From NCBI GenBank assembly GCA_965113315.1, contig OZ220365.1: a stretch of 64,000 bases of DNA; one strand, written 5' to 3'. Position numbers and translations under genes: made by a program. This DNA comes from Podarcis vaucheri (taxonomy: Eukaryota). Each line of letters opens with the position of its first letter. Positions within the stretch are counted from its first letter, which is position 1. A model generated the notes under the pieces. It saw only the letters and a program-made list of their open reading frames with translations, made no database searches and had not been told where the DNA came from. Positions 24,151-56,935 of the stretch are shown in pieces.

Positions 24151-26541
24151 CTCTTTGGGTTTCCAAAGGCTAGATTAATGTTTTGGTCATGAATCAAAAG
24201 CCTCCAACTACTGACTGTAGCAGAAGAGGCTCTGCAGTCCTTCGAGGTGGTGGTTCTCCTTTCATAGCTGGCAGTGGGAAGCATGATTTTGTATTGTTTC
24301 GACGGATTTTGCTGTAATCCTAAACAGATTTATTCAGGACTATATTTCCATTTTACTTCTAAATAAATGAATACAGTATGATCTGACTTTTAAAACATTC
24401 TCTAAACAGGGAAAAAATATTATTTGCTGTCCGGCCAGCCTCTTTTTAGACCATTTCAAGTTACAGATTTATTCTGTGACATTTTCATAGAATACAATTT
24501 AATTGGATTCTATTCCAATCAGAAATAGCTGTTTGGGTAAGGAGGGAGAATGTACTGCATGTATCAAATCCTGTTCCTACTGATGGTCACCATGCAGAAA
24601 ATCCGCAGATTTAAATCATCCTGATTTAAAAATAATCTGGCTTCTGTGTGTTCCAAGAAAAAAGCTATGCCAGCAAGACTTTGAAAGACTATTCACATAA
24701 ACACGAGCAATATAACTGTTGCAGCAAGTGTAATTCTAATAGTTAAAGCTGTCTTTCTAGAAAGGTCGTATTTATTACACCCACCCACACCCCTTAGATG
24801 AGGTATGGGGATAGGGCAAATACTGTTCTATCACTGCCACTCATTTCACTGGAAATACTGTGCAGGGGTTCCATGCAGATCCCTTTTGAATAAATGGACA
24901 CTCGGTAGCATCACTATCAGGGGCTTATCTTCCCATTGCTTTTAGTTAGTCATCTTCCCATAGTCATCTAGTTAATGGCTTTGCCAGCTGACTCTAAGGA
25001 GTTGATTAGCAAAAGAATGCAGCAGTTTTAGCTGCCATTGTTACCATTGTAGGAGGAGATTCAGACCAGAAGGTTCCCATAGTGGAGTAGTTTATTAGTA
25101 GTAGCAGTTGACTAACCTTCATGGGGCCAGTTAAGATTGCCTAGCCTGGGAAATCTTGGGTGGAACTGTTTCATAGAATCTACAGAACCCTGTGGTTTTC
25201 CTCCTTTACCTGGAGAAAATAGGCATGGGGTCTAACAGGGCATGTTGATGGGGAAAGCTGACAGATGCTACCTTTTTCTGCTTAAGCCAGGCTTGTGGTT
25301 AGTACTTGTGTTTGGCTTGAGATGTTGGAGCACAGAATTTTGAGGTTAGTATGTATGCACCCAACTTTTTTGTTCTTGTTTTGGGGAATGTGCTGGATGC
25401 TTGTATGCATACACTATTTTTAGGGTAAATAGAGATGATTAAATATATATTACATATCCATTTCCTTTTGCTTGCCATCTGAAGACAGGGTGTCAAAATA
25501 ACATAGATCTAATGCAAAACTTGCATTTCATATTTTCAGATAGCTTGTTAGGAAGAGAAGACTAGGTTCAAATGTTATATGTTATCTCCCTTTGCAGGAA
25601 GTAGTGTGACTTGGGAAACATGCAGTCTCTCATTTGTATTCTAAAACAGTACTGGTCTGTAAGGGTTGTACTATAAGATTTTTATGAAAGTTTTAATTTA
25701 CTTTTATATAGTGCTTCTTGGTGATTGTTTTAAATGTCTGAGATACCTAATATTCTGTGCGATTTGGAGAATATTTTCGAAGTTTGTACCCATACTTTTC
25801 AGTTCTTTGTATCACCAAGATTGGTAAATTAAAGCATCCTTGAAAATATCCCAAATAAGGAAGTAATTAGGTTTTTCTCTTATTAAGAGATTAAAAGTTT
25901 ATCTCAGCAGGGTAGAGAATTAAAGACAGAAATTATTGCTATAGCAAGAGGAGAGCTATGTCTGTAAATGAAAAATGATTCACATTTTTCCACTGTGCAT
26001 GTGGCATGTAACCATGCAGTACTAAAAGAAACATTTTTTAAAATGCTCTTCAACCCATTTTTTAAAAAAGAAAAGTGTTCTTAATTAATCTCTTCAACAG
26101 GAACAAAAGTCAAAAATCATGGACAACTTTGGTGCTTTTTTATATACTGGGATTGGCTACTCCCACTAGCCCTGTGTGGGCCTGCAAGAAGGTTAACCTC
26201 AGACGAGTGCATGGCTGTAGCTACCACTTCTTGAAGGCCACCTCCATGTTTTAACCCCATGTTTATTAGACAGGGGTGGAGGAACTCTGGCCCACTAGCC
26301 ATTCTTGGCCTGCCAGGCAATCCAGTTTGGCTCATGAGCCCATGTGTGGACACTGACTAAGGACTACTTTGCATATGCAATATAAGTTGCAAGGCTGCTT
26401 ATTTGGCCCTGCTCCCACAATGCTCTAAAAGCAACAATGCCTGAGTAGGTATCTGACATGCTTTTGGAATATGGATCTTTTTTAGTTTTGAAATACCTTT
26501 GAATATGGTGACCTGTTTCCTTTTTCTTTTGGGGGTTATAG

Positions 26542-26714
26542 ACTTGTATCTCCAGAGCAGCCTGCTAAGGCCAAGTTCCTGACGCTAGGTTCCAAGTTCC
26601 GCTACAGTGGGCGTACTCAAGCACAGACACGGCAGGCTAGCACTCTCATAGACAGACCTGCGCCGTACTTTGAGCGGACCTCAAGCAAACGTGTTTCCAG
26701 GAGTCTGGATGGTG
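26542..26714 (+). CDS. EPB41L2: EPB41L2 exon, FERM-adjacent domain ([33 protein letters not shown]...SRSLDG), 173 nt
   Basis: ttatag acceptor, G/gtaaga donor, [10 protein letters not shown] motif. Confidence 0.97.
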
Positions 26715-27409
26715 GTAAGAGTCTAACCAAAACCAGTAAACTCCTAATATGTGCCGCACATAGGTTCTTCAGTGAAATTAAAACTGAATATTCAGATAAA
26801 CTTCTTGTGTATAATGGTTAGTAAGGCATTTAGGGCCAGCACTTACAGAGGGTATAAAACCATTATGTTTATGTACCAGGATGGAATTTAATATATTGAA
26901 ACATTTTTGTATCGAAACACATTCATAGACCTGAGTTATTAGAATGTGTCTCATTTTTACAATACTACAGTTGCTTTGTCTTAGAGCCCCTCCTCCTGGT
27001 GGACATTAAATATTGTCAATATAGCATTAGCATTATGCGTGATCTTTTGATTTATCTCCTCATTCCTGAATGTATGAAAATTGTCCAGTGATATTGGTTT
27101 GATGTTATCATTTGCCAATATACCTTTATAGCTGACCTTTAGCACCTCACAACTTTCTACAACAAACAAACAAACAAATCACTTTCTTCAACATTTAGTC
27201 ACTATATTTTTAAATGTTCCAAAGGTTTTTTCACCCAAACTATTTACTGGCATATCATGTACCCAGTTTCTTTTTCCGTTGATTTTCTGACTAAAACCAG
27301 AATACACTGGAATCTTAAAAAATAGACAATACTTGTCTCATAAAGAGCAAGGTACTGTGGAATATTTCTCTCAAACATAGTTGAATTAACTAAACCTATT
27401 TTTTTGTAG

Positions 27410-27579
27410 CTCCAGTGGGTATTGCAGACCAGAGCCTGCTTAAGGACTTTTCTGCTACAGCTGTGGGGCCTGATGGTGATAGGATCTTTGATGCTTCCGG
27501 ACAGTTCAAATCAAAAGATGGGGAAGGTAGAGATGAGGATGGAGGCATAAGTAAAATGCCACAATTAGGAGATGGAAAG
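27410..27579 (+). CDS. EPB41L2: EPB41L2 exon, U2 region (APVGIADQSLLKDF...PQLGDGK), 170 nt
   Basis: ttttttgtag acceptor, AAG/gtaaga donor; resembles recalled human APIGVMDQSLMKDF...QLIEGK; phase 1-0. Confidence 0.92.
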
Positions 27580-28825
27580 GTAAGATTGCTGATGTTTTTC
27601 AGCTTTGTGGAAATAATTGATTTTGGAAATGGATTAAAACCAACTGCTGCACTAGTGGAGCTGCACTTCAGCTAATAATTTTGTGGCTGGGTTTTTTGCA
27701 CAGGATGACCCTGTGCATGTCTTAAGGCACCCATATAAACTGGTGAAAGCTGCTAAAGAGCAGTTTTTCTAGAAGGCAGTTACTCTTCTCTAGATTAGTG
27801 TACCTGGCACCAAAAAGAGAGGGACTGTGTTCATCACCTCTTAGTAGTGGAAAGAGCAGGTAAAGTCCTGCAATCTTGCCCAAGGGCATCTTATTTGGTA
27901 ATAAGCTGCTCTGGAGCAGAGCTAATATATTTGCTTCAGAACTCCCTGCAACTAGCTCCATTCAGTTGTGTGAAAGTGAAATCAATTTGCATATATAATT
28001 CATTTTATGATTTATTCATACTTGTGCTACCTATAGTTACATTATGCAACCACAGCTGCCATCTTCTATGAATAACTCTGTGCAGAAGAAAACATAATTA
28101 AGTGTAACACACGTTTTATACTAGCTTTTATCATTTGTGTGCTTGAAGCACAATACTAGGAAATTTATTTTATAATGTGAGGTGAATCAATGTGAGATAT
28201 GGACATTTAAACTTTATTTTCATTTCCATATTGACAGGTTATAAACATGCATTAATTTGAGCTTTTTCTGGCACACACAGCGTGGAATCACTTTACTAAG
28301 AATACTTTGAGATTTGATTCAATCTTTTTTTTTTAGGTTGTAATCCACTGAATTATCTGTGGAATATTTGTATTTTGACGGTTACACTTTTAAATTTAGC
28401 ACTTTCAAAGGAAAACCTGTAGTTGGAAACATTGTCCTCATGCTGATGTCTCTCCCCTGCCCACCTTCTGTAGAAGCTTTGAATGTCTGTCTGCTTTCAT
28501 CTATTGTGACTGCACTACTACAGTTCCAAACTACAGAATTCTTCACAGCCTTACAAGGTGGCAAAAATAAAAATAAAAATCTTTTTGAGCTGATATAATC
28601 CAGGTATTTGGATTATATCTTGTTGTATTTGAATACAGTTGGGACTAATGAATGTTTGTGGCATCCATATTGTAATGGTAGTGCTGTCCCTACTTCTGAA
28701 TAAATGTTCTCACTAACAAGTTTCTTCCCTCCTCCCTCTTTTGTGCATTCCTTCTGCCCCTCAAATGTGCATTTATATCATGGTCTCTCATCTGCATCTG
28801 GGACTGGACTCTCCCCCTCCTCCAG

Positions 28826-29467
28826 TCAACATACACACATCAGCTTTCACTTCCCAATCATTCTTATTCATTTTGTTCCCAAAACCTACCTGCTATCCCT
28901 GAAATGGACGTATTTTCAGACATTTCAGAGGATGATCATTTTGGTAAACCCATGTATACACCCTCAGATACCATAGTCTGCAGCCCTGTGAAAGAAGCAC
29001 CAGTTCATGGTATAAATGAACAGAAGTTCCCAACTAATCACTTGGAACTTATGGATCTTTTGGTGGCTGACCATTGTCTCCCTCTTGCTATAGAGAGAGC
29101 TGCTCATAAAAATACTGATCATGAAGATTCTGTGTCTCATTTTCCAGTTAGGGCAAGCAAACCTTTTCCCTTCAATTTCCCTTCTCTGCTTGATGAGAAT
29201 GGTTACATTAACTTTCCTAGCCTTCCAGAAGTTTGCATCTCGTTCCTCCCACCTTATCTTCAGCATTATGTTCCCATTACTTCTCCCTCATTCATTCCCT
29301 CCTTCTTCCTCATCTTTGTGCTGCTTCTCTGTACCATCCAGTCTATTCCTTTCTCACTCACATTGTCCCTTCCTGTTGCTCTGTCCCTCTGCTACCTGGA
29401 GCCTAAGGCAATTTCTCTGACCACCTCTAATGACACTGCTCTAAAAGACAAAGCTGAGGAAGAGGAG
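28826..29467 (+). CDS. EPB41L2: Candidate alternative EPB41L2 exon (642 nt, 214 aa, phase 0-0) with a 4.1B-like hydrophobic segment
   Basis: Acceptor ctctccccctcctccag in frame with ORF 28904-29488, no stops; donor GAG/gtgtgt. FPSLLDENGYINFPSL...LQHYVPITSPS...LCYLEPKA closely resembles recalled human EPB41L3 U2 (FPSLLDDDGYLSFPNL...LQHYLPIRSPS...LCYLEPKA). An alternative in-frame acceptor ends at 28843. Confidence 0.8.
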
Positions 29468-29716
29468 GTGTGTAACTTTGTTGTCTAAATTGCCACTTGC
29501 CTGTAGATTTGTTTGGGTGTACTAAGAGAGAAATTCAACCTTCATCCTTTCAGCATGAGGCTGCAGACGCCCTATTTTTTTTTTGAAAAAAAGTATTCCT
29601 TCTGCAGATATTTACGCATCTATCTTCATAAAATCTAGTGTTTTTAAAAAGCATTCACAATTTTTTCACTTCACATGGTCCTTTTAAGGATCTTCTCATA
29701 CATCTACTGCTTATAT

Positions 29717-29952
29717 CCCAGTGGTTCTCGAACTTAATCTGTTCCGGGAGTCCATTTGACTCCCGAAACCGTTCAAAAATCAAGGCGCGGCTTCCGATTG
29801 CCTGCAGGAGCTTCCTGCACTCAAGCGGAAGCAGCATCGGATGTTCGGCTTCCGAAAAACGTTCGCAAACCAGAACAGTTATTTCTGGGTTTGTGGCATT
29901 TGGGAGCAGATTTGTTCGGCGACTAAGCCATTCGGGAACCAAGGTTCCAGTG
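29717..29952. mobile_element. Tc1/mariner (Tigger/pogo-like) MITE, left end partly deleted
   Basis: cagtggttctcgaac ... ttcgggaaccaaggttccagtg followed by TA; CpG-rich with repeated gttcg/cgaa motifs. Confidence 0.65.
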
Positions 29953-32900
29953 TACTATCTTTGTGAAGAGCTGTGTACAGTTTCACTGCAGCCATTCTGA
30001 AAAAGGGATACAGCGATCTCACAACAGCCCTGTGTGCATCTCTCATATGAAGGTTCTGTTCCTTGCAAAATGTCTGTCAGAACCCACTGAGTCCACACAT
30101 TTCTGGATATGATCAGAGGCAATCTCAGGCTCCTTTCCCCCCATGGCAAGGAGAAGTATACCCCACCCCCACTGTCCCTTGTGCCCTTGTCAGAGGAGCC
30201 CGTGTGTTTGCTTGGCTGCCCAGAGCAGTGGAGGAATGGCCCAAGGAGCATGCAGATGGGCAGGCAGATTCTAAGCCTCAGCCTACACTGTTGACATGGG
30301 CCAACATTAACCCTTAGGTACACTCCTGGATAGGCACGTTCACATGGGATCTGCCAAAAATATTAGCTCTTAGACACAGTACTTTGCAACACAGCTTAGC
30401 ATTTATTGAGGGGAAAAATGATTTAATTGCCTTCCCATGATCCATATTCTTCTCCTACTTTTTAGTTCTTCTCTAGCACTGACAAGTACTTGAAATTCCT
30501 TGTTCAAGGAACAAGTTCAGCAGCTGTTTATCATTTTGAGAATGAGTCTATGTGAGCCTTGAACTTGTGTGCTTGTCATTTGCTACACCCACAGAGATAT
30601 TGGAAGCATTCATTTCCATTTTTTGGTAGCTACAATTAAGTGGTGGTACATCCAAACCAAGTTAGTAAACTATAGTAGAAAAGAAGCAAATGAACTTCAA
30701 ACCATGGTTTGTTGGCTTATTTCCATGAACTAGTAACCCGGATATATAATATAACTAAACAAAATGTTTTAAGTGGTGCCTTTTCTACTCCAACCTACAT
30801 TCCGATGAAGTAAAATATTCCAAAAGGTCTGGTGTAAAAAAATGTCTTTCCCTGGGTCAGTTTTCCCCCCTCTTTAAATGAGATTTTTATTTTTTTCTAA
30901 TGCATTAACATAAGCTGGAACAAAAAAAAGCATTTTTTGCCCCAATGATTATTTTTCAAAAATGAAACTTTGGGGGTACTTTTATCTGCATCACCGGATC
31001 AGATTTTAATGGGGGGGGGGGTAGGAAAGTGCCCCAATATTTTAAGATTTGTGGGTGAAAAAAGTACTCCATAGCTCAATCAATAAACTCTTTGTGGTAC
31101 CTTTTCAGTGCATGCATGTACCAAAATAAACCTGTAAATGATATAGGTGGAAAAAAATTAAATGATTGAAATTTGGGGCCATTGCTTACTAGTGTGTTCA
31201 GTTCTGCATAAAATCTGCAATAGAAAAGTGCATCAGGCATGCAATTTCGGCTCCAAGGTCCGAGTTAGGGTTAATAATAGTTTGGGTTTGGGCATAATGA
31301 TAAATTGTGGTTAATTGAGAGAATAGGAGGCCAATTATATACGTTCAATAAAATCATTGTTTCTCATCACATCTGAACTTGACCATGTGTCAGTTCTGAA
31401 ATTCAGTTTAGCTTTTTGGGTAGTAGGTAGAGAGGGTGGAGAGAGAAGTTTTTTTTTGTTTTAGTTTTTAAAGAGGGTGCTGAATTTTGACCAGTACAAT
31501 TTTAACATTGTCAGGTACAAAATTATCTTAATCTACCTTAGTTTAGCATACTCCTGCTTGGCTAAAATTGTCAGGATTACATTGAATGCAATTTATATAT
31601 GCATGGATTTTTAAAAAGCTATACTTTGATGTTAATGTTGATAAGTTAAACCTCCTGACTATGTCCATATGCTTTGACTGGGTAACACTGTCTGCATTCC
31701 ATAGGGCAAATGCAATTGCAGTATTTAAAAAAAGCATACTATGAAGATTTAAAGCAGAAAATTATAGCAGGGAAATCCTTGCGGTGAGCTAGCTGCCTGT
31801 GGTTGATAATACCAGAATTATAAATATATATTAGACAGAAATGATTGTACAGTTTCTGAAGAAAGTCAGGCAGCAAGATGGGAAACATTTATAGAAACCC
31901 CAAAATAGCGTGCATAACTGCACTGAGAACCTGGAGACCTGTTGCCAACCAGACACAGACAGGACTGTGCCAATTAAACCAGTGGTCCAACTCTACATAG
32001 GACAGCTGTAGACAGCTGTGTTCAGTGCGATACTTGTATCCCTAATTTCAGTGGAATCAAATATGCCAATTTGTATATTATGGTAACTATTTTCTTATTT
32101 AATCAGTTAAACACTTTTGATACTGCATTGCAGCAAGAATTCCAAAAACCTCAGATAAAGGTGGGACTGGGATAAATATATCCTGATAATGTGTTTGGTA
32201 CAGACTATACTTTCCTCTTTACATAGTTGCTAGTAAGAGATGTGTGTGATAAAAGTAAAATAGTTATTAAAACAATGACCTTAAACTAATAGAGGTTGTT
32301 TTAATACCTGGCAATTCATATATTGATTCATTTTTATTTTGTGGGGACATAATTACGTTGATTAAAATTGTATTCCAGATGCCTCTGGCAAGTCACTCTT
32401 GGTTAGCTAACCTATAACACCAAGCCATAATTTGATATTACATGAACAAAGCTTCTGCTCATGTACTGCATTTCCTCTTCTCATCTCATGTTTCACTTTG
32501 GTTTGTTACTTCCTATTTAGTGCAAACCATAATTTTCTGTTGCATCCAGAGCACTGAACTGTGGTTTGTGCTTTCCCTCCAGACAAAAACTGGCATTCAG
32601 CTACAAACTGTGATTTATAATCCTGGTGGTTTGTAAGTAACAGTAAACTTTAGTTTGAACTAAAGAGCAAGTTATTAAACTGGAGTGTGTGGGGAGGAGA
32701 AGGGAGTGCACAAGCATTTGGCTCATTCACAGAGCCCAAAACGATGGTTTAATGTTATACCTGAAGTCTGCAATATATATTTTTATGTGATATCCCCAAA
32801 AAGCATAAAACAAACCATTCAAATAAAGCTCTTGGTATCTTTCAGCATTTAACAATACAAATGTAATTTCCCCTGTATAGTTTTTAACAGTAAACATACT

Positions 32901-33273
32901 ACAGATATATTCTGTGTTGGTATTGCAATCACTCTTCTTCAGTGTTCAGAATTCAAGCTGATCTCTTCACCTTCAGATTTTAAAAAATTATTTCAAACTG
33001 TGGAGAAAAATAAGCGAACACGATGGTTGTAGAGAGACAGACAAATCTTCCATTTTCCATTTCACCTATACCAAAAATTACTTCAGCCATTTCTACAGTG
33101 TTGTAGGTGGAAGACTGCAGTGGTTTAATAACTTGAGCAGCATCCGAGGCAAAAACAATAAAGGTTTGTAAATAGAGCACATTGTTTGTAGTATTTCTAA
33201 ACAAAAGACCATGTGCTACTTCAGTGTCTACACTAATGAGTGTTTTCTTTTGCTGACCTCTGGGCCTACATAG

Positions 33274-33306
33274 GCAGAGATAGAAGAGGAGGAAATTCGC
33301 AAGGAG
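33274..33306 (+). CDS. EPB41L2: Candidate 33-nt microexon (AEIEEEEIRKE), phase 0-0
   Basis: Branch-like gctgac, acceptor catag, donor GAG/gtggat; purine-rich; frame-preserving. Confidence 0.55.
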
Positions 33307-33506
33307 GTGGATATTTTCAATTACACCTGGTTGTTGCCTGCTATTATCAGTGCTTGAGGCTGCTGTCGATTATGTTTGCATAGTGGCTATCCCTGTTTTA
33401 TTTTAAAAGCCCCATTTATTGAACCTTAAAACACTTTTTTGTTGTGTTGATGATCATGGGTTGTTGTTTTTCCGTGTCTTCTTTTGTGTGTGCTTTAATT
33501 TTACAG

Positions 33507-33569
33507 ACCTTTTCCTTGAGAATAGATGGGGAAAATATTTATGTCAGACATAGCAATTTAATGTTGGAG
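33507..33569 (+). CDS. EPB41L2: EPB41L2 SAB cassette exon (TFSLRIDGENIYVRHSNLMLE), 63 nt; equivalent of 4.1R exon 16
   Basis: ttttacag acceptor, GAG/gtttgt donor, NIYVRHSNLMLE motif. Confidence 0.93.
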
Positions 33570-33617
33570 GTTTGTATAATCTAAGGAGTACTTTTCTGTC
33601 CTCATGGGCTGCCAGGC

Positions 33618-33699
33618 TGCATGAGATTGGAGGTCACTTGCAGGCTGTTCTAGGCACAGTGCATGAAATGCATGGGGGTGTTCGACTTGGACATGCATG
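33618..33699 (+). promoter_or_regulatory. Intronic splicing enhancer: four RBFOX motifs TGCATG
   Basis: TGCATG at 33618, 33660, 33669 and 33694, 49-130 nt downstream of the 63-nt SAB exon. Confidence 0.75.
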
Positions 33700-34965
33700 T
33701 TGAAAACCAATCTTAGTCATTGTAAATGAATGAATTTAAGTATGCAGCTGTTAATACATTTTGGAATGGCAAGTAGAACTTATAGCCCTGTTTAGATGTT
33801 AATATTTGGAGGAAATCTTTTTTTAAAGACTTGCCAAAATGGTTGAGGATGCACCATCTAGAATTCAACTCATGTTTCCTTTTACATTTCCTATGCATAA
33901 CTGGAAATGTGAGGCAATGAATGCTAGTAAAAAATGATGCAGTAAAATTAGAACCAGGAAGTTCTTTGTTCTCTTCCTGGAATCCTAGAGAGCTGAATCT
34001 AATTCTATAGTAAAATAATACTTACACCATGAAGTAATTCGTGCTTTATTTGTTGTGATATCAGGAGGCACTATATTGCCTTTGGAATGAAATTATGAAT
34101 GGTAGATTCTTTTGGCAGCCATATTGAGTAAATATTGTTTACCTATTACATCCAAATAGTGCATTCAAAATAACAAAACTCTGGATCCAGAAGAGCAAGC
34201 TTTGTCATCCAAATTGGGCTATTTGCACTGTTAGATTTAGATGATGTCAGTTATTTGTATACATGCAAAAACATTACATTAAAATCTTCAGATTTACAGT
34301 AACCTTACTAATATGTTATGTTGCTTTTTGGCAGCTTCCGATAACTAAATACATACTTTGTATAATTTTACTAAAACACTGTAAAGTGTACTGCATAACG
34401 TTGCATTGAACAAATCCAAGAAATGTGCCTGGTCTCAACCCAACATTCTTTTTGAAAATACTCTATTGACTCAAACTGTGATAAATCTCTACCAATTGGT
34501 TGTTTTTTTGTTACTTAGATTGTTACTAAAGGTACTAGTTGTACCCCTTGGAAGTTTTTACTGCTTTTACACTTTTAAAGCTCATAGTGCCATACACATG
34601 GAAGTTTGGGGGGCAATATTTTGGCTAATTAAATGCCAACACAAAAAACCTCCAGTTGTCCTCCTCCCCCAACAGACTATGGAAAAATGTCCTTCCTCCA
34701 TGCTGTCCTTGTCACTTATCTCTCTCCCCCCGCCAGTGTTTCTTCTATCCCAGAGCCTGCTTCCCAACCCAATATTCCAGGCACTCTTTTTGTTCCTTCC
34801 CTCTTCTTGATATGCATGCTATCTTATTGCCCCTCTAGTACAAGGTTATATCTGAAAGTCAGCTTTCAGCATGATTGAATTATGTCATTCGGCATAATGG
34901 CATATTATTTTATGGTGCCTTCAGATGTGGTTTGAAAATTAGTTGCAGCATGGATTCTAGCCCCA

Positions 34966-34966
<1 letters not shown>

Positions 34967-35033
<67 letters not shown>
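34967..35033 (+). repeat. Compound (CA)n(GA)n microsatellite
   Basis: Direct reading. Confidence 0.95.
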
Positions 35034-35036
<3 letters not shown>

Positions 35037-35802
35037 CATGCCCATGTCTTAAGAATGACATACTGCTTCAAAGGAACTTCATAGAATTGTAGCTGGAGAA
35101 TTGGGAAGTGCAAGCTTTCACTATGTTTGTTTAAATAAATGATAAAGCAAGATGCCTAAATTATTTCTGGTCACGCAGCATTTCCTGTGTGTTGTACTGC
35201 TTTCCCCTACAGAATGGGTAATCTCATGCTTGCTGTACTTTGCAACACAGAAACAGTTGAAGCCACAATTCTTTACCTACCATCTTCTCACGTGAGAGTC
35301 ACTGGTGTCCATGGTGGTGGGGAGGGGGCAAACTATGCTCTCAAAGCTAAATGTACATTAATAGAATGCTTGATCCCCATCCTCTCACAGTAAATAGTGC
35401 CATGTACTTTTGTGGGCAAAAGATGGTGTGTTTATCCTGGATATTATTGGGGTGAAGGCAAACCCCGCTTTTCATCTGGAGACTGGGTGGCCTGGTCTTC
35501 ACTTTTAGGGAGTGCGTCATCATTATGGGTATTTTGCCCTTATAGTGACAAAAATAAACATTTGCTCTGTGACTAAGTGTTCTACATCTCAGAAACTGCC
35601 TTGTAGTTCAATTTGATAATACTGTAAAGATTAAGAAAAGAAAAAGCACATAATGTCATAGTAAAAAAAAGAGAACACTTTAAATAAGTAAATTACTGAA
35701 TCTTGATATCCCAGGCACTTTTCATGGTGTGTGTTTTTTTTTTTTAAATGGTTTATGTTTGTCACATGTTGTCCTACCTTTTTTACATTACACGTTGCTT
35801 AG

Positions 35803-35949
35803 GACCTGGATAAGACCCAGGATGAATTACTGAAGCATCAGGCTAGCATTAGTGAACTCAAGCGCAATTTTATGGAATCCACTCCTGAGCCACGCCCTAA
35901 TGAATGGGAAAAGCGGCGTATCACACCTCTGTCTCTACAGACACAAGGG
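35803..35949 (+). CDS. EPB41L2: EPB41L2 SAB core exon (DLDKTQDELLKHQASISELKRNFMES...SLQTQG), 147 nt
   Basis: ttgcttag acceptor, GGG/gtatgt donor, HQASISELKR motif. Confidence 0.97.
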
Positions 35950-38340
35950 GTATGTCACTGAAGACCCTTGTCAGCATGCATAGCCACAAAATTAAGAAAA
36001 TAGTTAAACTATACATTGTGTTTCAGTATTAACAAGGAAGATATGGGGTGTTTCTTTGTTGCTAATGTGATATTTGTTTGCTGCTAACACATTAACATTG
36101 TGTGCATCTGTTGCTTTCTGTTTGCAAAAATTTCAAAGTAACTACATTACTTTTTAGGTTGAGAAAGCAAGAATGAAGTAGTTATTAATAATATAATTTG
36201 AGAGTTTGAGATAAAGAGTGTGGAATGTCAGTTTACAGTGCAGCTCCAAGTATATTCACTCCAAGTCCCTAAGTCATTTCATTGCCTCACCATTTACAGT
36301 AATTTGGAGGCAGAAGTACTTCAACAGGAGGAAAAGGGGTAAGGGAAACACAATTCACAACCCTCCCTTCAAAACAGGTACTACAGAAAAAGTTATTCTT
36401 GAATGCACTCCAATTTAGTGGTGTTATGTCTAATGTATTTTGAGTGAAGCACTGTCAAGCAACTAAAAAGGAGATTCAGAAAATTCAACTTGGCCATTAT
36501 CATAAAATGTATACTGCTAAAATGACATTCAAATGTATTTACATAGTACTGAGAATGCTAATAGGATTTAAATTCCAGTATCAGTAAGCTCCAGTCTTCT
36601 ATTTCTATTTACAGTTTTCAGTGTGTGTGTTCTTTAAAAAAGAAAAACAAATGCCATAGATGTGCATACATTGGTATGGCATGCTTTCAGGAATGAAATG
36701 CACTTTTTGTTCAGCACTTTCGAAGTTTACCTCTTAGGTTGCTTTGTGAACCATTTCCATACAAACAACACAGATTAATTATGGAAATCCAGAATGAGCC
36801 AGTAGGCCAGGTATTTACTTCAGAACATTTATTTGTGGTTTTTATCTGTATTGAGGCAGATTCTGAAATCACTGTCTCCAGAGTAACTCATTGACATGAC
36901 TAGACTCCATCATAAAATGCTTTTGCCTTAAAAACAAAACAACTTTGGGCTTTTCAGTATTTAATGACCCAACCATATGTGTGGTTTTTAATCTCTGTTT
37001 AGCACAAATAATACCCAGTACATAGACATGGGTCCACTGAAGAGCTGAACCTGTAGCATTTCCCATCCTGTGTACTTGGGGAGAGATCATTCAGAGAGTA
37101 CTCCATGCATGATAGTGTATTCCAGATGTCTGTGCAGAAAACATTGTTGATTATGCCAGTGACACAGGAATTCTCTGCCTGTTTTTATGCCAGTTGTCCT
37201 AGCAGAAAAAGCACTGCGTGGATGTATTTGTTTCTTTTAGCATTCTATCATTTAGCATTTAGTTTCTTTTAGCATTCTGTCATGTTCGCTGTTTACTGTG
37301 GCTGTTATCTCTTCTGCAGTTTCTTAAATTTGTATTCTGCCTTTTCATCAAACGTGCTCAACATAGCCAACATCAGTAAAATATAAAGTAAAATACAAAA
37401 TGGATTAGCTAGCGAATGTGCCACACTCAAGCTATTTGAAAATGAAGACTCAACTATATTTCTCTGAATGTATATTGACATCAATTAAAACTGTTCTGCA
37501 GATCAGTAATGTCAAAGAATGGGATCCTCCCAAATAGAGCCTTCTCTTGTTCCAAAGGGTATTTAGCTGTTGATAAGGCTGTATTCTTTTTAGTGTATTA
37601 AGAAATGAGGCTTTAAATGATGCTGCCTGATACGCATATAGAGTATTATAAGCTCAGGTGCCAGTTCAAGGTGTATCTGCCATATACCCTACGCAGTGGC
37701 AGATTTGTGCTTTTTGAATAGAGCTTGATTTTTCTCCAAATTCAGCCTCAAAGAGGGATGTGCTTCCTTTGGCGTTACCTTCAGTTTAGTTTTCATACCA
37801 CTGTTCCCTAGCACAGCATAGGGAGCCAATTTCATATTTGTTAATGTGTTGCATGTCTTTGTCCAAAGACATCTTGTCAATAATAACGAGTTAATAGAAT
37901 AAGAAATACGCCACAGTTTTAAGTTTCCAATAGTTGGTACTGTATAAGCAAAATACTTGCCAAGCTGAGCAAGAAATTGATAATCCACTTCAAATTAGTG
38001 AGAATAACTGTAGTGTCATTATAGTTGCAGTGCCCTTGCCAATTTATATAATACCTGTGTTCTAGAGAGCTTAAATTTTATCAGTGAAATTAGTCATTTC
38101 TTGAAAGGTTGTCTTAGTTCCCTTCAGATTCAGGACTATGCTACAGGTTTAAGTATGCATCACTGTCTTGCTTTTTCCCTTCTTTTCCCCATCAATTTTT
38201 TTGTACTCATTCTGAACATGTTAGAGCTAGCAGCCTATTTAAGAATAGTGCTATGTTTTGACATAGTAGTAGTACTAATAAATTGTTTCCTTAAGTTCTT
38301 CACTGCTGCAGGGGCAGAGTAGTAGGAGACAAATGAAATA

Positions 38341-38509
38341 CCGTATTTTTTGCACCATAACACTCACTTTTTTCCTCCTAAAAAGTAAGGGGAAATGTCT
38401 GTGCGTGTTATGGAGGGAATGCCTACGGGTGGCATGCCTACAGATTTTCCTCCTCTAAAAACTACGTGCGTGTTATGGTCGGGTGCGTGTTATAGAGCGA
38501 AAAATACGG
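38341..38509. mobile_element. Tc1/mariner-superfamily (Tc2/pogo-like) MITE, 169 bp
   Basis: TA|CCGTATTTTT ... AAAAATACGG|TA: terminal inverted repeats with TA TSD; internal repeats gtgcgtgttat. Confidence 0.85.
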
Positions 38510-39810
38510 TATTTAGGCTGGGGAAATATTGGTCACTAGCCAAGAGACTTGCACTAGTGGAATGGGACTTTCCCATTCTCACCCCTGCAGCCCCCCATGT
38601 GTCCTCAGAATCAGCTCTGGAGGGCTGAGGGACCCTATAGAGAAGATTTTTGTGAGCATGCGAGGGAAGGAAATAGAGGTGCCATGGCACCAGCAGAACT
38701 TCACTAGCACTGCTTTAAATACAAGCCATTATCAGCAACTATTGTGAATATTACTCAGTGGACGGTGCTGGATTTTAACAGCCAGAAAAGAAAATCATGG
38801 TGCCTTGTGGGATCAACTGTTACTGACTTTTGAACTGTATGAAACTCTTCATGTACATAGATTGGAGTAGGTGGGAGTTTTCTACAAAAGTAGCTTTATA
38901 GGCAACAATTGATACTGAAAAGTGGAGGGCACTTCTCTTTTCAACATTCCTGTGCTCCAAATTGCACTCCAGCATAAATTTATATTATAAAATGAGTGTT
39001 TGCCTTCACAGCCATGTGCTTTGACAATCAACAATTCCTCCAAGTAAGCTCACAAAATCATTTAGCCCACATTTGGGTTATAATTTGGGTTTATTGCACA
39101 CGTTTTATAGTTCAGCCTTAAATGTGCTATCTTGCCTAACCTTCCTTTCATAATTAATGTCCTAGGGAAAATGGAATATTAATTAAGAAAAAAATGGATT
39201 GTACAAAAGCCTGAAAATAAAAGTTTGAAATATAAGCTAGTTTTAATGGCCATGATACATAATAGGTTTGCACTTGAGGGTTCATGTAGGCTTCAACTTA
39301 ATAATGGACGTTTCAGAAAGGAGCAAGATTGTGAGAACAGAGTTGCACAATTTTCTTGATGAATGGCTTAGATCCAGAGATGTCTTGCGTGAGCCAGAAA
39401 GCCCTTCCAATTATCCAAGGCAGCTTTGCTGAAATCCTCGAATTTCTTATCCTACTCTAGTCACCCCACCTGCTTCATCACACACATTTTGAGAGGGTCT
39501 GTTGCCCTACAGGAATGGATTTAGGAAGATGCCATGATCTACAGTATTGGGGGGGGGGGGAGCCAGGGAAACCCCTTGATCATCTTCAAATCCTATCCGT
39601 AATGGGTTAAAAAAAGAATATCATGAAAATAGATGGAGCTGTATCCTTTAGGGAAACACATTTGAATGTACTCTTTCTTGTGTTTGTGTGCTTTCCCCCC
39701 TCTCCTGTCCTTTTTCTTTTCTTGCCTGATGCTTTCCTTTATTTTGTAGGTCACTGCTGTTTTGTCTTCTGCTGTTTAATTCGTTACTTTCCATTTTCTA
39801 ACTTGTCTAG

Positions 39811-39978
39811 AGCCTAGAAGAGGAGATAGCATCAATTTTATTTAGTAAAGAGGGTTTTTCCACTAGCATGAAATCTGCCTTCACTTCAGCTACCTTGTGG
39901 ACAGCAGAGGGCACTGTTGTGAAAGATAATGTACCTTCTGAAAAGCTTTCTGCCTCGCCCTTCTCTCAGCTGCCTGAG
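39811..39978 (+). CDS. EPB41L2: Candidate cassette exon in U3 (SLEEEIASILFSKEGFSTSMKSAF...PFSQLPE), 168 nt, phase 0-0
   Basis: About 150-nt pyrimidine-rich stretch, branch ctaac, acceptor ttgtctag; open frame; donor GAG/gtgctt; two TGCATG at 40155 and 40181. Confidence 0.6.
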
Positions 39979-41389
39979 GTGCTTTTCCACATTTACTTTT
40001 TCCACCATAAAACTATATATGAAGACAGTGGGGTTTCATGTCAGATGAAATTGTGTCCCAGTGATTAAAAGATTGTAAGATGAAATTAGGATAGAGAAAA
40101 ATGCAGAGCCTAAAATAAAGCTATTTGAAATGGCTGGTGTGTATGCAAGACGCTTGCATGAATTGGTTTTACCAGTGACTTGCATGTAGAAGTGCCAACT
40201 CCATGCAGGAAGTGGGAACGGACAGTTAGAATGTAAATACATATTGCACCATTGTGCTTTTTTAAAAGTGAGAAGTAAAATTATTTTGAATGAAAAAATG
40301 AAAGGCAAGCGCAAGCTAAAAGCTTATCTTGCCCATTCTAAATGTTTTGTAGACATAGATCTTCAAAAGAAATAGTACTATATATTGTTTTTCTGTTCCA
40401 TTTATATTTGAAATTATCTGGCAGCCATAGATAAATCTAGTCTTAAACTTTAATTTGAAACCAAAATTAAATCACAGCTGCTGTCATAGGATTAATTATT
40501 ATAGTAATGGTACTGTTACATTTTTCCTTTCACTTTTTTGTACTGTCCCTTGTGTGTATGTGTATGTGTGTCATCTCTTAGCTTTTAAGATCTACATACG
40601 TCAGTTTGCCCTGACTCTAGGTCATAACAAGTGGCACAGTACAATTTCCTTGAGGATCATAGGACAGTATGGGCTTCTAAAATGCTGTTCCTTACATGCT
40701 TATATGCTAAACACATTTCTCCATTTGAGATATTACATATGTACAGGCAAATTTCATATATCTTCAGAGGTGCCCAGCTAATCAAGGGTCTAAAACAAGG
40801 AAATGTATGTGAGTTCAGATATTATATCTGTGAAATAGGAACATCTGGCAGAACCTGTAGCAGCCCTTTCAAGGGTGTCAATATTCGCTGATACACATTA
40901 GGTTTGTTAGAAAAATCTGCAAGTACATGAACATAGCTGGCCAGTTAATGTTAGCCTTGTTTGGCACTTAATAACATTGTTTTACAAATATAATAATGAT
41001 GATGATGATAGTTACCAAAGTAGAATATTTATTTCAGAGTTTAACCTGTCCCAAGCTGAGAGAGTGCAAGTTTCAAATAGAGGTCTATCCTGTTCAGATA
41101 AATCAAGTGAAATAAAAACCCCTAAAGAATCCAGATTTACCAAATGCCAACTTTGGAGCTTTCATAAGTAGAACATTTTACAGCACTCTGGACTAAAAAT
41201 ATTGCATATTTTCAGTGTGCTTATTGCTGTGCACTTGATCTGTGCTAATTTAACAAATTGTGCTGTACATGTGTGAGCGTGCAATCAGTCCCTCTGTGCT
41301 GTTTGTGAAATGATAAAATCAGATGTTTGTGTTAAGAGATGTTGAAACTTGTATTTATGTTTGTCTTCTGGTTGCTTCTTGTTTCACAG

Positions 41390-41443
41390 AAATTTACACC
41401 CCAAACAGAAGAGCCTTCCATTGGAGCCAGCAGGACGATTAAG
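41390..41443 (+). CDS. EPB41L2: Candidate 54-nt cassette exon (KFTPQTEEPSIGASRTIK), phase 0-0
   Basis: Strong acceptor gcttcttgtttcacag; weak donor AAG/gttcta; frame-preserving. Confidence 0.45.
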
Positions 41444-41644
41444 GTTCTACTATTTTGCCATAGTCCATTGAGCTTTGACATTTCAGAATCTTCATTCTTC
41501 CTTCCTTCCTTTTTTCATTTAACCATTACAGTCATCTTTGTTCTTCATGTGACCTGAACCACCCATCACATAGTTTTATGTTCACTATTTTATTTATTCA
41601 TGTTTTCTACTTTTTGTTTTTCCTCATCCATTTGTTTTGTGCAG

Positions 41645-42193
41645 AGTTCGCATGAGACTCTGAACGTAGTGGAGAAGAAGCAGGCAGAGGTTGGGATAGA
41701 AGAGACAGTAGTCACTGCCGATACCAACAGAGGCAAAACACAACTTGTCTCTGGTGGTGGGCAAACTCAGAAGATGGAGCACCTATCAAAGAAGGATTCT
41801 TCATCACTGTCATCAAGTAGCAGCAGTAGTGAGAGTGAAGATGAAGTAGGAGAATATCAGCCACACCAACGGATGACTCAGGGTGCCATAAAAGAAGAAA
41901 TAGAAGAAAATGAAGTTATCATAGAGGAGGGAGAACACAATGCACAGGCAACAGTGTGTGCAGAAATTTCACAAGAAGCCAGTCCAGTTCAAGTAACAGT
42001 TACGCACATACCAGTGACAGAAACATTGGTCCAGGCGAATGAAGTATCCACCAAGACACCCGGAGAGGGACACCCGGCAAAACTGGATAAGCAAGCCCTG
42101 AAAGAAGAGAGGGTGGAAGAGCAGCTCAAAGTAAATGGAGAGGCATCGCATAGTGACATTGATGTTTCACAGCAAATAATTTGTTGCTCCGAG
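41645..42193 (+). CDS. EPB41L2: EPB41L2 large U3 exon (SSHETLNVVEKK...VSQQIICCSE), 549 nt
   Basis: tgtgcag acceptor, GAG/gtaaat donor; Ser tract and acidic region colinear with recalled human 4.1G. Confidence 0.95.
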
Positions 42194-42718
42194 GTAAATG
42201 GTAGAAGAGTAAGGGATCCTTTATCAGGCCCATCGTCCTAGGGTTCAATATCTCTGCCTTTCTTCTTCTCTGTCCTCTTCAGGTTTTCATAAAGATTCAG
42301 ATCTGGAAAGTGGAAAATGGATGTGCAGTCAAATTCTGCCTTTGGTTAAGGCTTCTGAATTTTTTACTAGTTTGGTTACCCAGAAGAGCGAACTTGCCTG
42401 GGATTATGCCATCTTTTTACTTTCTCATGTTCTGTTTGTTTTGCATGTGTTAATTTGTTTGAGTCTTGTCCTGTCTAGTTTGATTTTTATTATCCTTCAA
42501 TAAGTTTTAATTGGAATTGTGATGTTACCTTTCTTGGGCATGAGATGAAAACGCATTTTATGCATTTGATGTAATAGTCTTAAAACCCAAGTATTTTTTT
42601 AATTGAAAAACCCTACCTATTTTATGAAACCTCCTATCTAAATACTAAAATACAAATAGCCAGAATTTGTAGGAACGCACAGTTGATGCATTCTATAAAT
42701 CACCATGAGACACACGTA

Positions 42719-43431
42719 CAGTGGTGCCTCGCAAGACGAAATTAATTCGTTCCGCACGTTTTTTCTTCTTGCGAGTTTTTCTTCTTGCGAAGCACAGTTT
42801 CCCATCGGAATGCATTGAAAATCAATTAATGCGTTCCTATGGAAACCGCTTGCCAGGCTGGCGGTGCGGAGAAGGGCTTTTCTCCCCACCGCAAGCCTTC
42901 AGGACAGGTACGGGAACAGAGGGGAAGGGGCGCAGCGCTTCTCCTCTGTTCCCGGGGCTTGCGGTGGGAGGAGGGTTTTTCCTCCCCACCGCCAACATTC
43001 AGAACAGCATTCTGAATGTTGGCGGTGGGAAGGAAAACCCTCCTCCCACCGCAAGTCTTCAGGACAGCCATCCGAAGGCTGGCGCGGGGAGAAGGGCTTT
43101 CCGCCCCACCGCCAGCCTTCGGAGCAGCCTTCCAAAGGCTGGCGCGGGGAGAAGGGCTTTTCTCCCCACCGCCAGCCTTCGGAGGAGCCTTCCAAAGGTT
43201 GGCGCAGGGAGAAGGGCTTTCTGCCCCACCGCCAGCCTTCGGAGGAGGTCTGAGGACAGTGGGGAAGACGCGCTGCGCTTCCCCGCTGTCCCGGAGATTT
43301 CCCTATGGGCTTTCGTCTTGCGAAGGAAGCCCATAGGGAAATTCGTTTTGCGAAGCGCCTCCAAAACGGAAAACCCTTTCGTCTAGCGGGTTTTCCGTCT
43401 TGCGAGGCGTTCGTCTTGCGGGGCACCACTG
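42719..43431. mobile_element. Tc1/mariner (Tigger-like) non-autonomous element, 713 bp, with internal palindromes and 60-bp minisatellite
   Basis: TA|CAGTGGTGCCTCGCAAGACGAA ... TTCGTCTTGCGGGGCACCACTG|TA; GC/CpG-rich; explains the cluster of overlapping spurious ORFs. Confidence 0.9.
43076..43250 (+). repeat. About three tandem copies of a 60-bp self-complementary unit inside the MITE
   Basis: Consecutive 60-nt lines 43081/43141/43201 are near-identical (ggcgcggggagaagggctttt-ctccccaccgccagccttcggag). Confidence 0.9.
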
Positions 43432-44805
43432 TACCATATTTACTACTCTTAACCAAAGTCCTTTGCAGATACAGTTATTATTTTATGCTAGCCACTTGTA
43501 GTCCTCGAGAGGCATGAACTTACTCAGTAGATGCTAAATCAAATTTATTTTCTCTAAGAACATGCAGCATAATGAAGAGCCTGAGAGATGGTAAATGAAG
43601 CACAGGTTAAAGGTTCCAATCCAAGGGTGTGTGGGTGGGTGTGGGTGGTCCTGGCAAACAGCAACTTGGGAGCACAGCAACTGTGTTAATCAGCTGATAT
43701 TTCTGGAGGGAAAGACCAAACCCATTCCGCTTCCATCCATCCATCCCCCCCAAAGCTGATCTGTGCTGCTGCTGCTGTTGTCATTGTGTGTGTGTTTCAA
43801 AAAAAACAGAATGGTGCACATAGCAGCTGGACTGGAGGAGGATTCCCAGAGCCACTTGCATGTGCAATTCCTCATCCAGCTAGAGAAATGTGTGTGGAGC
43901 ACCATAGTTATACTGGAGTGGCTGAGGGCATTTCCACCCCCAAGGTTATTAAATATGGAAACAGAAGATTTATAATGATGGTCAGGGCCATCTAGGTCAA
44001 TCTTGTCCCCATTGGCAGGATTTGTCAAGTTTTAAACTGTCTCAAAATGCATTTATGCAATTTATTAAACATTGCCATATAAGGAGTTGTAGCAAGTTTG
44101 TGACACTCAGGAAGTAGTGTATGGAGTTGGTTTTGGGGTGACATCTATTGGCTCTATCTCATACCAACAAGATCATTGAAGATATATTGACAAGCTTAAT
44201 AAATAATGATTCAAACTGTTCGTAAGGGCTGTTTCAGAAGAATTTTATGATGTACTTGCTCAAACCATAAAGTTTGAAGTAGTTACATATCTTGTTAACA
44301 TGGTGTACAAGACAGAAACAGATAAATGCTGTGGCCATTTGTGGCTCACCTACAGTGAGTATATATTATGTGCATGAAGTTTAAAAAAGCCAGCTTTTAA
44401 ATCAGATGTAAGCTATGGGTTCAAACAATGGAAAGCTGTGATTGGCCATGGGCTCACCACTGTATAGATCGCTCGTATACCCTGATATTTTAAAAGCTTT
44501 AAATCTTACCAATCTGATTGTATGTTAATTTATTAACCATTTTTATATATGCTACTGATTTAAATTTATATTCCTATCTAGCATAGGAAATATACTATGG
44601 TGATTTTCAAGTGCTTTCTTATATTTAGTAGACAGAACACTTAACATTTCTTGTGTGTTCATGATTTTCAGACTTGGGTTTAGAATTTCTTCTAAGGAAT
44701 GTTTAAAAAGTGAATCTGGGATCTTGTTGCCTGAAGCCAGTTCATAGACTGCTGTATCCCATGTACTTCAAAATTCATACTCTTCTGTGTTTTTCTAAAC
44801 ACTAG

Positions 44806-49339: not shown

Positions 49340-50470
49340 TAATAATAATAATGAATTTTATTTATATCCCGCCCTCCCCGGCCAAGACTGGGCTCAGGGC
49401 GGCTAACATCAAATATATAATACATTAAAACTTAAGATCAAACAATCGGTTGAAATACAGCTTAAAATCAGATTACAATCTGAAAAAAATCAGATGGCAA
49501 CCCACAAATTAAAACTATAACTATGGGGTTGGGAACATTAAGTGTTCACCAGGCCCAGCTATTTGTGCTGATCATATGAGCCAGTGAGAAGGGTTAGAGG
49601 GGCCCTTTACATGCAAGTTCTTGTAAGAAAGGTCCCAGACTGGATCTGGGCGGTCCTGTAGGTACGAGGGTCCTAGGCCATATAGGGCTTTAAAGCTTAA
49701 AACTGGCACCTTAAACCTGGCCCTATAGTCCACCGGGAGCCAGTACAACTGGTGTAGCACTGGATGAATGTGATCCCATGGCGAGGACCCAGTAAGGAGC
49801 CTCGCCGTGGCATTCTGCACCCGCTGGAGTTTCTGGGCCAGCCTGCATAAAGTGAATTACAATAATTGAGCCTGGAGGTAATCATCACATGGCTCACAGT
49901 GGCAAGATCAGGGCAGGAAAGGTAAGGGACCTACTGCTTGGCATGGCAGAGATGGAAAAATGCCACTTTTGCTGTAACTGCGACCTGTGCCTCCATGGAG
50001 AGGGAGGCGTCGAAGGTTACGCCCAGACTCTTGACTGAAGGTACTGGTACTAATTGCGCCCCTGCAAGGGATGGGAGCTGGCGCTCAAACCCCATGTCGT
50101 CCCAACCAGAGGACCTCTGTCTTTGAAGGATTTAACTTCAACTGGCTCCCACGCAGCCATCCAGCCACCACATCCAAACATCTGGTCAGTGTGTCTGGGG
50201 CTGAGTCAGAATGGCCATCCATCAGCAGATAAAGTTGGGTGTCGTCAGCGTATTGATGACAGCCCAGCCCGAAGCTCTGAACAAGTTGGGCAAGCAGGCG
50301 CAGAGAGATATTAAAAAGCATCGGGGAGAGGATTGTACCCTGTGGCACTCCACAGACCCGAGGGGTTCCGCGACGACAATTCCTCACCTAGCGCCACCCT
50401 CTGTCCCCGACCTGAAAGGAAAGAGCACAGCCATTGTAAGACTGCCCTGGCTGCTGCTACCAAGCACCTG
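49340..50470 (-). mobile_element. L2-clade LINE, 5'-truncated, frameshifted reverse-transcriptase remnant in the last EPB41L2 intron
   Basis: Minus ORFs give GVPQGTILSPMLFNI, YADDTQLY, LNPSKTEVL, SRLNYCNSLYAG and QNATARLL...LYWLPV; (TTA)n/ATAAAT tail near 49340-49365. Confidence 0.88.
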
Positions 50471-54760: not shown

Positions 54761-55147
<387 letters not shown>

Positions 55148-56389: not shown

Positions 56390-56935
56390 TCTTGGGTTCC
56401 AAGATGCCTGCTTCTTGGGAGAAAAGCAATGACAAACCTAGACAGCATCTTAAAAAGCTGAGACATCACCTTGCCAACAACGGTCTGTATAGTTAAAGCT
56501 ATGGTTTTCCCAGTAGTGATGTATGGAAGTGAGAGCTAGACCATCAAGAAGGCTGATCGCCAGAGAATTGAAGCTTTTGAATTATGGTGCTGGAGGAGAC
56601 TCTTGAGAGTCCCATGGACTATAAGAAGATCAAACCTATCCATTCTGAAGGAAATCAGCCCTGAGTGCTTAATGGAAGGACAGATCCTGAAGCTGAGGCT
56701 CCAATACTTTGGCCACCTCATGAGAAGAGAAGACTCCCTGGAAAAGACCCTGATGTTGGGAAAGATTGAGGGCACAAGGAGAAGGGGACAACAGAGGACA
56801 AGATGGTTAGACAGTCTTCTCAAAGCTACCAGCATGAGTTTGACCAAACTGCGGGAGGCAGTGGAAGACGGGAGTGTCTGGCGTGCTCTGGTCCATGGGG
56901 TCACGAAGAGTCAGACATGACTAAACAACAACAAC
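56390..56935 (+). mobile_element. BovB (RTE) LINE, 5'-truncated 3' end
   Basis: ORF 56603-56920 (LKLRLQYFGHLMRREDSLEKTLMLGKIEG..RRGQQRTRWLD) is a BovB ORF C-terminus; (CAA)n tail; TSD ATTGTTGTT at 56381-56389 and 56936-56944. Confidence 0.93.

Follow-up and report, generated by a model that had tools for sequence, protein, structure and literature searches.

In a 64,000-nucleotide stretch of DNA from the lizard Podarcis vaucheri (contig OZ220365.1; hereafter the window), an optional exon of EPB41L2, the gene for protein 4.1G, encodes a hydrophobic segment of 36 residues without any charge, and the reading that we favor, with a probability of about 0.6, is that the exon provides a splice-switched monotopic hairpin membrane anchor, as comparison of homologs and structural models suggest. 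In gene models of other vertebrates the exon is also used as the last exon of 4.1G, which gives a FERM-FA-anchor protein without SAB and CTD. An earlier reading of the window from its sequence alone (the sequence-only reading) had proposed a membrane-inserted isoform, and its interpretation is partly supported by the evidence presented here.

The Exon and Its Host Gene

The stretch 28826-29467 on the plus strand is free of stop codons over 642 nt and is translated into 214 residues; the other two plus frames of the same stretch contain 6 and 18 stops. It is preceded by a pyrimidine tract with an AG acceptor (28800-28825, plus strand; sequence ...ctccccctcctccag), and its 3′ end, GAG/gtgtgt, is a phase 0 donor with the canonical GT and a moderate match to the consensus. 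Acceptor, donor, phase 0 and the stop-free 642 nt are all as the sequence-only reading had described them. In homologous gene models, the upstream sequence ...DGK is joined to the hydrophobic exon at the equivalent position. With four homologs as tblastn queries, exons for FERM, FA, U2, SAB, U3, and CTD were located in this order over positions 9700-49287 of the window, the exon in question lying in phase 0/0 between the U2 and SAB exons. Those relevant here, all on the plus strand, are the FERM-adjacent (FA) exon (26536-26714; Pfam PF08736, E=5.5e-20), the upstream U2 exon (27410-27579), a 33-nt exon placed by homology (33274-33306, AEIEEEEIRKE), to whose counterpart the hydrophobic exon is most often joined on its downstream side in non-placental models, and the U3 exon (41645-42193, SSHETL...). 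The best protein matches of the exon peptide are named band 4.1-like protein 2. Since the domain exons are present in order and the other three 4.1 paralogs of the same genome are on other contigs, the earlier assignment of the host gene to 4.1G is upheld. Frame-preserving splicing, canonical splice sites, and protein-level selection are all present for 28826-29467, and it is practically certain that this is an in-frame, optional coding exon of lizard EPB41L2.

The 5′ part of the exon contains an acidic motif specific to 4.1G (28886-28936, plus strand; LPAIPEMDVFSDISEDD, with the pattern L..IPE.D..SDISEDD), which is recognizable from shark and teleost to mouse, the rest of that exon part being variable, and which was not seen in the alignment of the 4.1B exon. 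It might be a phosphorylation or sorting signal. As for the surroundings, there is a high-copy, repeat-like element nearby at 29722-29860 and a GC-rich tandem array near 43000 (42700-43470), and two repeat-like frames at 50085-50387 and 56540-56920 resemble fragments of LINE reverse transcriptase.

Splicing Seen in RNA

Of 24 RNA runs listed, four from a close relative, whose DNA is not identical and whose tissue is not stated, were mapped to 24500-33400; two of them were raw-read runs, with 6% and 12% of the reads examined, and the other two were contig sets. The FA-U2 junction is found in three of the four runs. From the donor of the U2 exon, 13 reads (X21) and one contig (X1) pass over the hydrophobic exon, joining 27579 to 41645 of the U3 exon; one X7 contig leaves 27579 into sequence resembling the first SAB exon. 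Exon skipping thus takes place in lizard RNA. The junction 27579>28826, proposed as a check in the sequence-only reading, did not appear: in these four runs of low depth no junction entered 28826, and only skipping was seen. In the two raw-read runs the exon is not covered by any read, against about 11-13 reads on the neighboring exons, and contigs X1 and X7 cover it solely within unspliced intron. In this mapping, with 42 loose ends beyond what was displayed, a junction leaving 29467 for the SAB exons would have surfaced solely as a loose end. Over the intron 27580-33400 the depth of the X1 and X7 contigs is flat near 10, and the two upstream introns are uncovered, as if the former were spliced late. 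The differences listed for the related species within the exon are V29I, F39L, N129S, and Q172H (the last at 29340-29342), and all four are non-synonymous.

A Homologous Copy in 4.1B and Selection on the Peptide

A search of the lizard's own genome gave one other clear copy, which is in the 4.1B gene (E=1.5e-25, 54% identity over 100 aa) and lies 10 kb downstream of the 4.1B FA exon and upstream of the SAB exons. The remaining matches (L005-L010) are weak (E 0.2-9) and were put down to chance; those displayed as alignments are low-complexity Leu/Ser-rich frames. The 4.1B copy is 97-99% identical to the listed sauropsid matches (best 120 of 2750), which are named band 4.1-like protein 3 except for two unnamed rows. 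In lizard 4.1N and 4.1R, neither the part from FA to SAB nor any other part of the stretches searched showed such a module (best domain E 0.13). Homology to a 4.1B exon, which had been put forward in the sequence-only reading, is thus borne out both by this copy and by proteins named EPB41L3, and its proposal that the exon is older than the 4.1B/4.1G split is supported, too.

What the two paralogs have in common is a core of 78 residues (29177-29410, plus strand; FPSLLDENGY...LCYLEPKA), in which 42 of 75 residues are identical between lizard 4.1G and 4.1B. The first, second, and third codon positions are 64, 81, and 44% identical, respectively, the third positions being near saturation, and eight of 25 fourfold sites are identical. 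Estimated dN is 0.33 and dS 1.68 (near saturation), so that dN/dS is around 0.2. Judged from these codon comparisons, the core is under purifying selection at the protein level, as had been supposed. Can the conservation nevertheless reside in RNA or DNA, with the hydrophobic peptide as a mere by-product of pyrimidine-rich sequence? The region is CT-rich, and uncharged runs occur in 19 of the 918 stop-free stretches of 36 or more codons in the six frames of the window; an uncharged run by itself is therefore not beyond chance, and it is conservation that places the segment beyond it. However, second positions are far better kept than the nearly saturated third ones, the frame is kept in all homologs, and an Rfam search of 27400-33400 returned no match. 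The codon pattern largely refutes this explanation, to which we attach next to no probability.

When the four lizard paralogs were subjected to a quartet test without an outgroup, a sister relationship of 4.1B and 4.1G was weakly disfavored (1 of 16 informative sites; p values of 0.032 by AU, 0.14 by KH, and 0.25 by SH). If they are not sisters, the module would predate both genome duplications, but the signal is too weak for such a claim, and a module that is older than both duplications and was lost twice may be taken as a lead only.

Spread Among Jawed Vertebrates

Searching with the exon peptide gave 297 proteins among 895 candidates, and the best 120 of these 297, every one of which has the CYLE motif, are 4.1G models (a few of them without a name) of lizards, turtles, birds, marsupials, and a sturgeon. 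The lizard, turtle, and marsupial models have the junction with the upstream exon as in P. vaucheri. A marsupial query gave 1895 proteins among 3662 candidates; the best 120 of these 1895 bring in echidna as well as 32 placental rows with names, among them mouse EDL04797.1 and primates, and orangutan XP_063522669.1 is present as a cluster member. A profile built from both paralogs, run against 1.84 billion representatives, gave 30 matches at E<=0.001, of which 29 have the motif; the thirtieth (P0335), without the motif, was dropped before columns were counted. Among the clusters of these 30 matches, 20 were looked up. Wherever a member has a name, it is 4.1G or 4.1B (from bamboo shark, zebrafish, catfish, herring, shad, medaka, or vole), and the remaining members are unnamed fish proteins; no 4.1R, 4.1N, or invertebrate name was seen in these 20. 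The homologs are for the most part gene models produced automatically. That of the sturgeon (P0022) bears an "unverified" flag and contains one piece twice; paddlefish P0307 is independent support for this clade. Although it goes by the name of band 4.1-like protein 3, a herring protein of 250 aa (P0327, XP_031436973.1) contains an exon of the 4.1G type, ends in CDPAA, and is probably a lone 4.1G exon under a wrong name.

The sequence-only reading had the exon kept under selection in the lizard lineage, which is too narrow: every jawed-vertebrate group sampled, with primates and mouse among them, retains it in 4.1G. Annotation in sauropsids, which had been left open, can also be settled, as the exon is already in RefSeq-type models there and, more widely, in automatic models of sharks, bony fish, reptiles, birds, and mammals.

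Use as the Last Exon

The use of the exon as a last exon, the annotated form in placentals and teleosts without SAB and CTD, had escaped the sequence-only reading. Among the matches listed, 31 of the 32 placental rows stop 34 residues past LCYLE and have neither SAB nor CTD; the sole exception is one Galemys model. Five of the 120 listed bird and other matches of the exon peptide (best 120 of 297) are terminal bird models ending in VCNFVA, and the terminal ends are VCNVVA in echidna, VCNPVA in paddlefish, and CDPAA in zebrafish, Danionella, and catfish. In the lizard, reading through the donor (29468-29488, plus strand) gives VCNFVV and then a stop at 29486-29488, which matches the ends of these terminal 4.1G models. 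Candidate poly(A) signals (AATAAA) lie farther downstream at 31082, 31125, and 31347. The last three residues of this read-through, F-V-V (29477-29485), correspond to F-V-A in birds and are not kept in placentals; we take this end to resemble a class II PDZ-binding end.

Because Val-Cys is partly set by the donor sequence, its conservation among amniotes is weak evidence for terminal use, and the teleost CDPAA end together with the fixed position of the stop is stronger. Directly after the acidic run, 30 of 31 placental terminal rows have Ala in place of Val, and teleosts likewise have a residue other than Val; from the proteins, it seems that the GT donor has changed in placentals and teleosts. 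Moreover, two Logan contigs from public runs (2872 and 2619 nt), which cluster with a gerbil model and come from a rodent-like sample, encode the whole terminal protein of 828 aa. In this window the corresponding exons are spread over some 20 kb or more, so that these contigs are spliced sequences, for which mRNA is the simplest explanation.

It might be supposed that the terminal exon serves mainly to down-regulate 4.1G, through truncation and through an exposed hydrophobic end that marks the protein for degradation. The truncation does remove SAB and CTD, and the failure to see inclusion in the four RNA runs would agree with such a role, but a generic degron is hard to square with conservation since sharks and with the internal use in 4.1B, and we regard this as quite improbable.

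The Hydrophobic Segment

The 36-residue segment (29291-29398, plus strand; FIPSFFLIFVLLLCTIQSIPFSLTLSLPVALSLCYL) is divided into predicted helix 1 (29291-29341), a break of three residues (29342-29350), and predicted helix 2 (29351-29398), all on the plus strand. The sequence-only reading was right about the position of this peptide, though the run without D, E, K, or R around it is actually of 56 residues (aa 136-191). In an alignment of 32 rows from paddlefish, shark, teleosts, and amniotes, with both 4.1G and 4.1B represented, the 36 hydrophobic columns contain no charged residue in 1150 cells, and P158, S173, L180, P183, A185, C189, and L191 are invariant. Of the two cysteines that had been pointed out, Cys189 (29390-29392, plus strand) at the distal end of the segment is C in 32/32 rows and is a candidate palmitoylation site, whereas Cys169 is private to the P. 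vaucheri sequence, with Ser in the other 31 rows. Similarly, the central Q-S-I-P break is present here, but its proline (P175) is kept in only 23 of 32 rows.

Over the 78-aa core, the lizard sequence has 68 identities with Elgaria, 65 with eagle, 62 with marsupial, 54 with mouse, and 60 with sturgeon, and the range against nine homologs is 54-68, while the 5′ part of the exon has 27/98 with mouse. Even the most eroded copies, of catfish type, which have lost the upstream half of the core, retain the hydrophobic segment and LCYLEPK. In all four proteins tested, the module is the sole strongly hydrophobic part, with a best 19-residue Kyte-Doolittle (KD) mean of 1.8-2.4 vs. 0.9-1.3 elsewhere. Helix 1 has a mean of 2.35 over 17 residues, including 12 consecutive strongly apolar ones. 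Helix 2 is less hydrophobic (1.76), and its alternation of polar and apolar residues is strand-like (moment 1.44 at 170 degrees). A higher value than that of the 36-residue segment (3.1) is reached by the clear transmembrane segment of a neighboring SMLR1-like exon. The latter is an exon-like frame on the minus strand (54761-54922) with a strong transmembrane segment (KD19 3.1) and a weak Pfam match to Adipogenin (E=0.004), and we take it to be SMLR1, a known neighbor of EPB41L2.

Two AlphaFold runs, with 7 and 22 sequences, both gave a helix over aa 156-172 and, beyond a break at S-I-P, a second one starting at 176, so that the helix-break-helix appearance noticed earlier is reproduced with modest confidence. 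In the deeper run of 22 sequences, pLDDT is 71-74 over both helices, the overall confidence being low (mean pLDDT 54-56, pTM 0.29) and antiparallel packing of the helices not displayed. Each predicted arm has 16-17 residues, which is short for a full membrane span. For the 214-aa exon, no Pfam family was found at E<=1; a PDB sequence search had no match, Foldseek had none at E<=0.001, VIA-align gave generic helices at best (Z 6.1) and no fold was assigned, and the ESM Atlas gave leads below 0.9 only.

From these features, insertion of the segment into a membrane is predicted, and we consider it probable. Another possibility is that the segment does not insert but is a buried element for protein binding or self-association, or binds peripherally through palmitoylated cysteines. 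The near-invariance of residues (97-99% in the best 120 of 2750 4.1B matches, and the seven invariant columns) exceeds what a lipid-facing anchor needs, and conservation extends to the polar half of the core (LLDEDGY, FP.L, LP, PI.SPS). In addition, passages of PMC8473747, citing Robb 2005, state that membrane targeting of 4.1B U2 depends on FERM, for a construct that may or may not have included this exon. On the other hand, a buried or peripheral element does not readily account for 36 columns that are chargeless in 32 rows, for a hydrophobic part that outlasts deletion of the polar half, or for the 12 consecutive strongly apolar residues of helix 1. We hold this alternative to be unlikely, at perhaps one chance in five; still, the invariance at the level of residues suggests a binding partner as well as an anchor.

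If the segment does insert, does it cross the membrane? Helix 1 might be a single span; terminal 4.1G would then be a FERM protein of the tail-anchored kind, its short tail lying in the lumen or outside the cell. Its hydrophobicity would suit a span, the segment ends about 29 residues before the C-terminus in the terminal form, and this form is the sole one annotated in nearly all placental rows among the matches listed. The geometry of a tail anchor fits the terminal form, however, and not the internal one: the same sequence lies before SAB and CTD in 4.1B and in 4.1G of shark, reptile, bird, and marsupial, where with a single span SAB and CTD would have to cross the membrane. A single span is thus less likely still than a buried or peripheral element. 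Because SAB and CTD follow the same peptide in 4.1B and in 4.1G outside placentals, only a topology with both ends in the cytosol fits all the forms, and a hairpin would be needed if FERM and CTD both remain cytosolic in the internal form.

Comparison With Known Systems

The closest known relative is the U2 exon of 4.1B (EPB41L3), which has the homologous core, the position between FA/U2 and SAB exons, the phase, and the GAG/GTGTGT donor in common with the 4.1G exon, and copies of which were seen in vole, lizards, turtles, and teleosts. The long human isoform of 4.1B presumably carries the homologous exon, too. The 4.1B exon differs in an unrelated 5′ part, in F-S-V-P at the break, and in having more cysteines. 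In named full-length 4.1B models it is internal, whereas 4.1G also uses its counterpart as a last exon. A Golgi-associated 200-kDa variant of 4.1B is said to have been described by Kang et al. in J Cell Sci in 2009; such an endomembrane location is what an exon-encoded anchor would give. That variant may concern this exon, in which case the 4.1B side would be partly known. We know of nothing comparable for 4.1G.

Hairpins of caveolin, of reticulon/REEP, and of class I lipid-droplet proteins consist of about 33-36 uncharged hydrophobic residues in a helix-break-helix arrangement with a cysteine at the cytosolic exit. The 4.1G segment is like them in length, in lack of charge, in the predicted break, and in the exit cysteine, but has no sequence similarity to caveolin or reticulon hairpins, and with no Pfam family at E<=1 it does not belong to either family. 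Different from the caveolin type, it would be one hairpin within a large scaffold, switched by splicing. FRMD3 and FRMD5 have FERM, FA, and a C-terminal hydrophobic segment, which would also be the domain order of terminal 4.1G, although their segment is constitutive and that of 4.1G is optional; no FRMD3 or FRMD5 name appeared among the 20 profile-match clusters looked up out of 30.

Among the papers that the literature search brought up, none describes the exon as a membrane anchor; prior art in the primary papers on 4.1B isoforms is possible. Nor did this search bring up a report on synaptic scaffolds with hairpin anchors that are added by splicing. The passages of PMC10606877, PMC10887211, PMC7550591, and PMC10830384 that were consulted contain no description of the exon as an anchor. 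Exon 14 of 4.1R, as far as passages of PMC9926112 go, is a different cassette of 19 aa. According to parts of PMC3180372, 4.1B isoforms differ between CNS and PNS, and according to parts of PMC11450717, 4.1G in human retina is mostly without SAB, a novel junction there belonging to another exon; the terminal isoform may be among the entries of the long-read tables of that study. The U domains of 4.1 proteins are called nonconserved in a passage of PMC8473747.

A Proposed Mechanism and Its Meaning

How would such an exon work? According to the hairpin model, the 36-residue segment would insert into the cytosolic face of a membrane as the predicted helix-break-helix, likely helped by palmitoylation of the invariant cysteine. 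Splicing would then yield three forms. With the exon skipped, as seen in RNA here, 4.1G would be an ordinary peripheral adaptor. With the exon internal, as in shark, reptile, bird, and marsupial models and in the usual form of 4.1B, the product would be FERM-anchor-SAB-CTD. With the exon last, as annotated in placentals and teleosts, it would be FERM-FA-anchor of about 820 aa without SAB and CTD. For the hairpin topology, the target organelle, and the use of the terminal form in this lizard, we rely on inference. More tentatively, and with odds against it, we suggest that jawed vertebrates have an overlooked integral-membrane 4.1, namely 4.1G of about 820 aa that lacks SAB and CTD and ends in a hairpin, in addition to long 4.1B and 4.1G anchored by a hairpin, so that a single choice in splicing would send a FERM adaptor away from the cortex and to a specific organelle (Golgi, ER, or lipid droplet), where it would sort FERM-binding cargo or compete with full-length 4.1.

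The module is real, ancient, and automatically annotated, and it is apparently uncharacterized. The exon sequence is already annotated and splice-switched anchors are a known device; what would be new is the function. The short terminal 4.1G exists in mouse and zebrafish models, and antibodies or constructs directed against SAB or CTD would have missed it. The exon could bear on the tissue differences of 4.1B and 4.1G isoforms and on knockout phenotypes in nerve and retina, and a U2 module that has stayed nearly unchanged since sharks in two paralogs and looks like an anchor would revise the view of 4.1 proteins as peripheral adaptors with a nonconserved U2.
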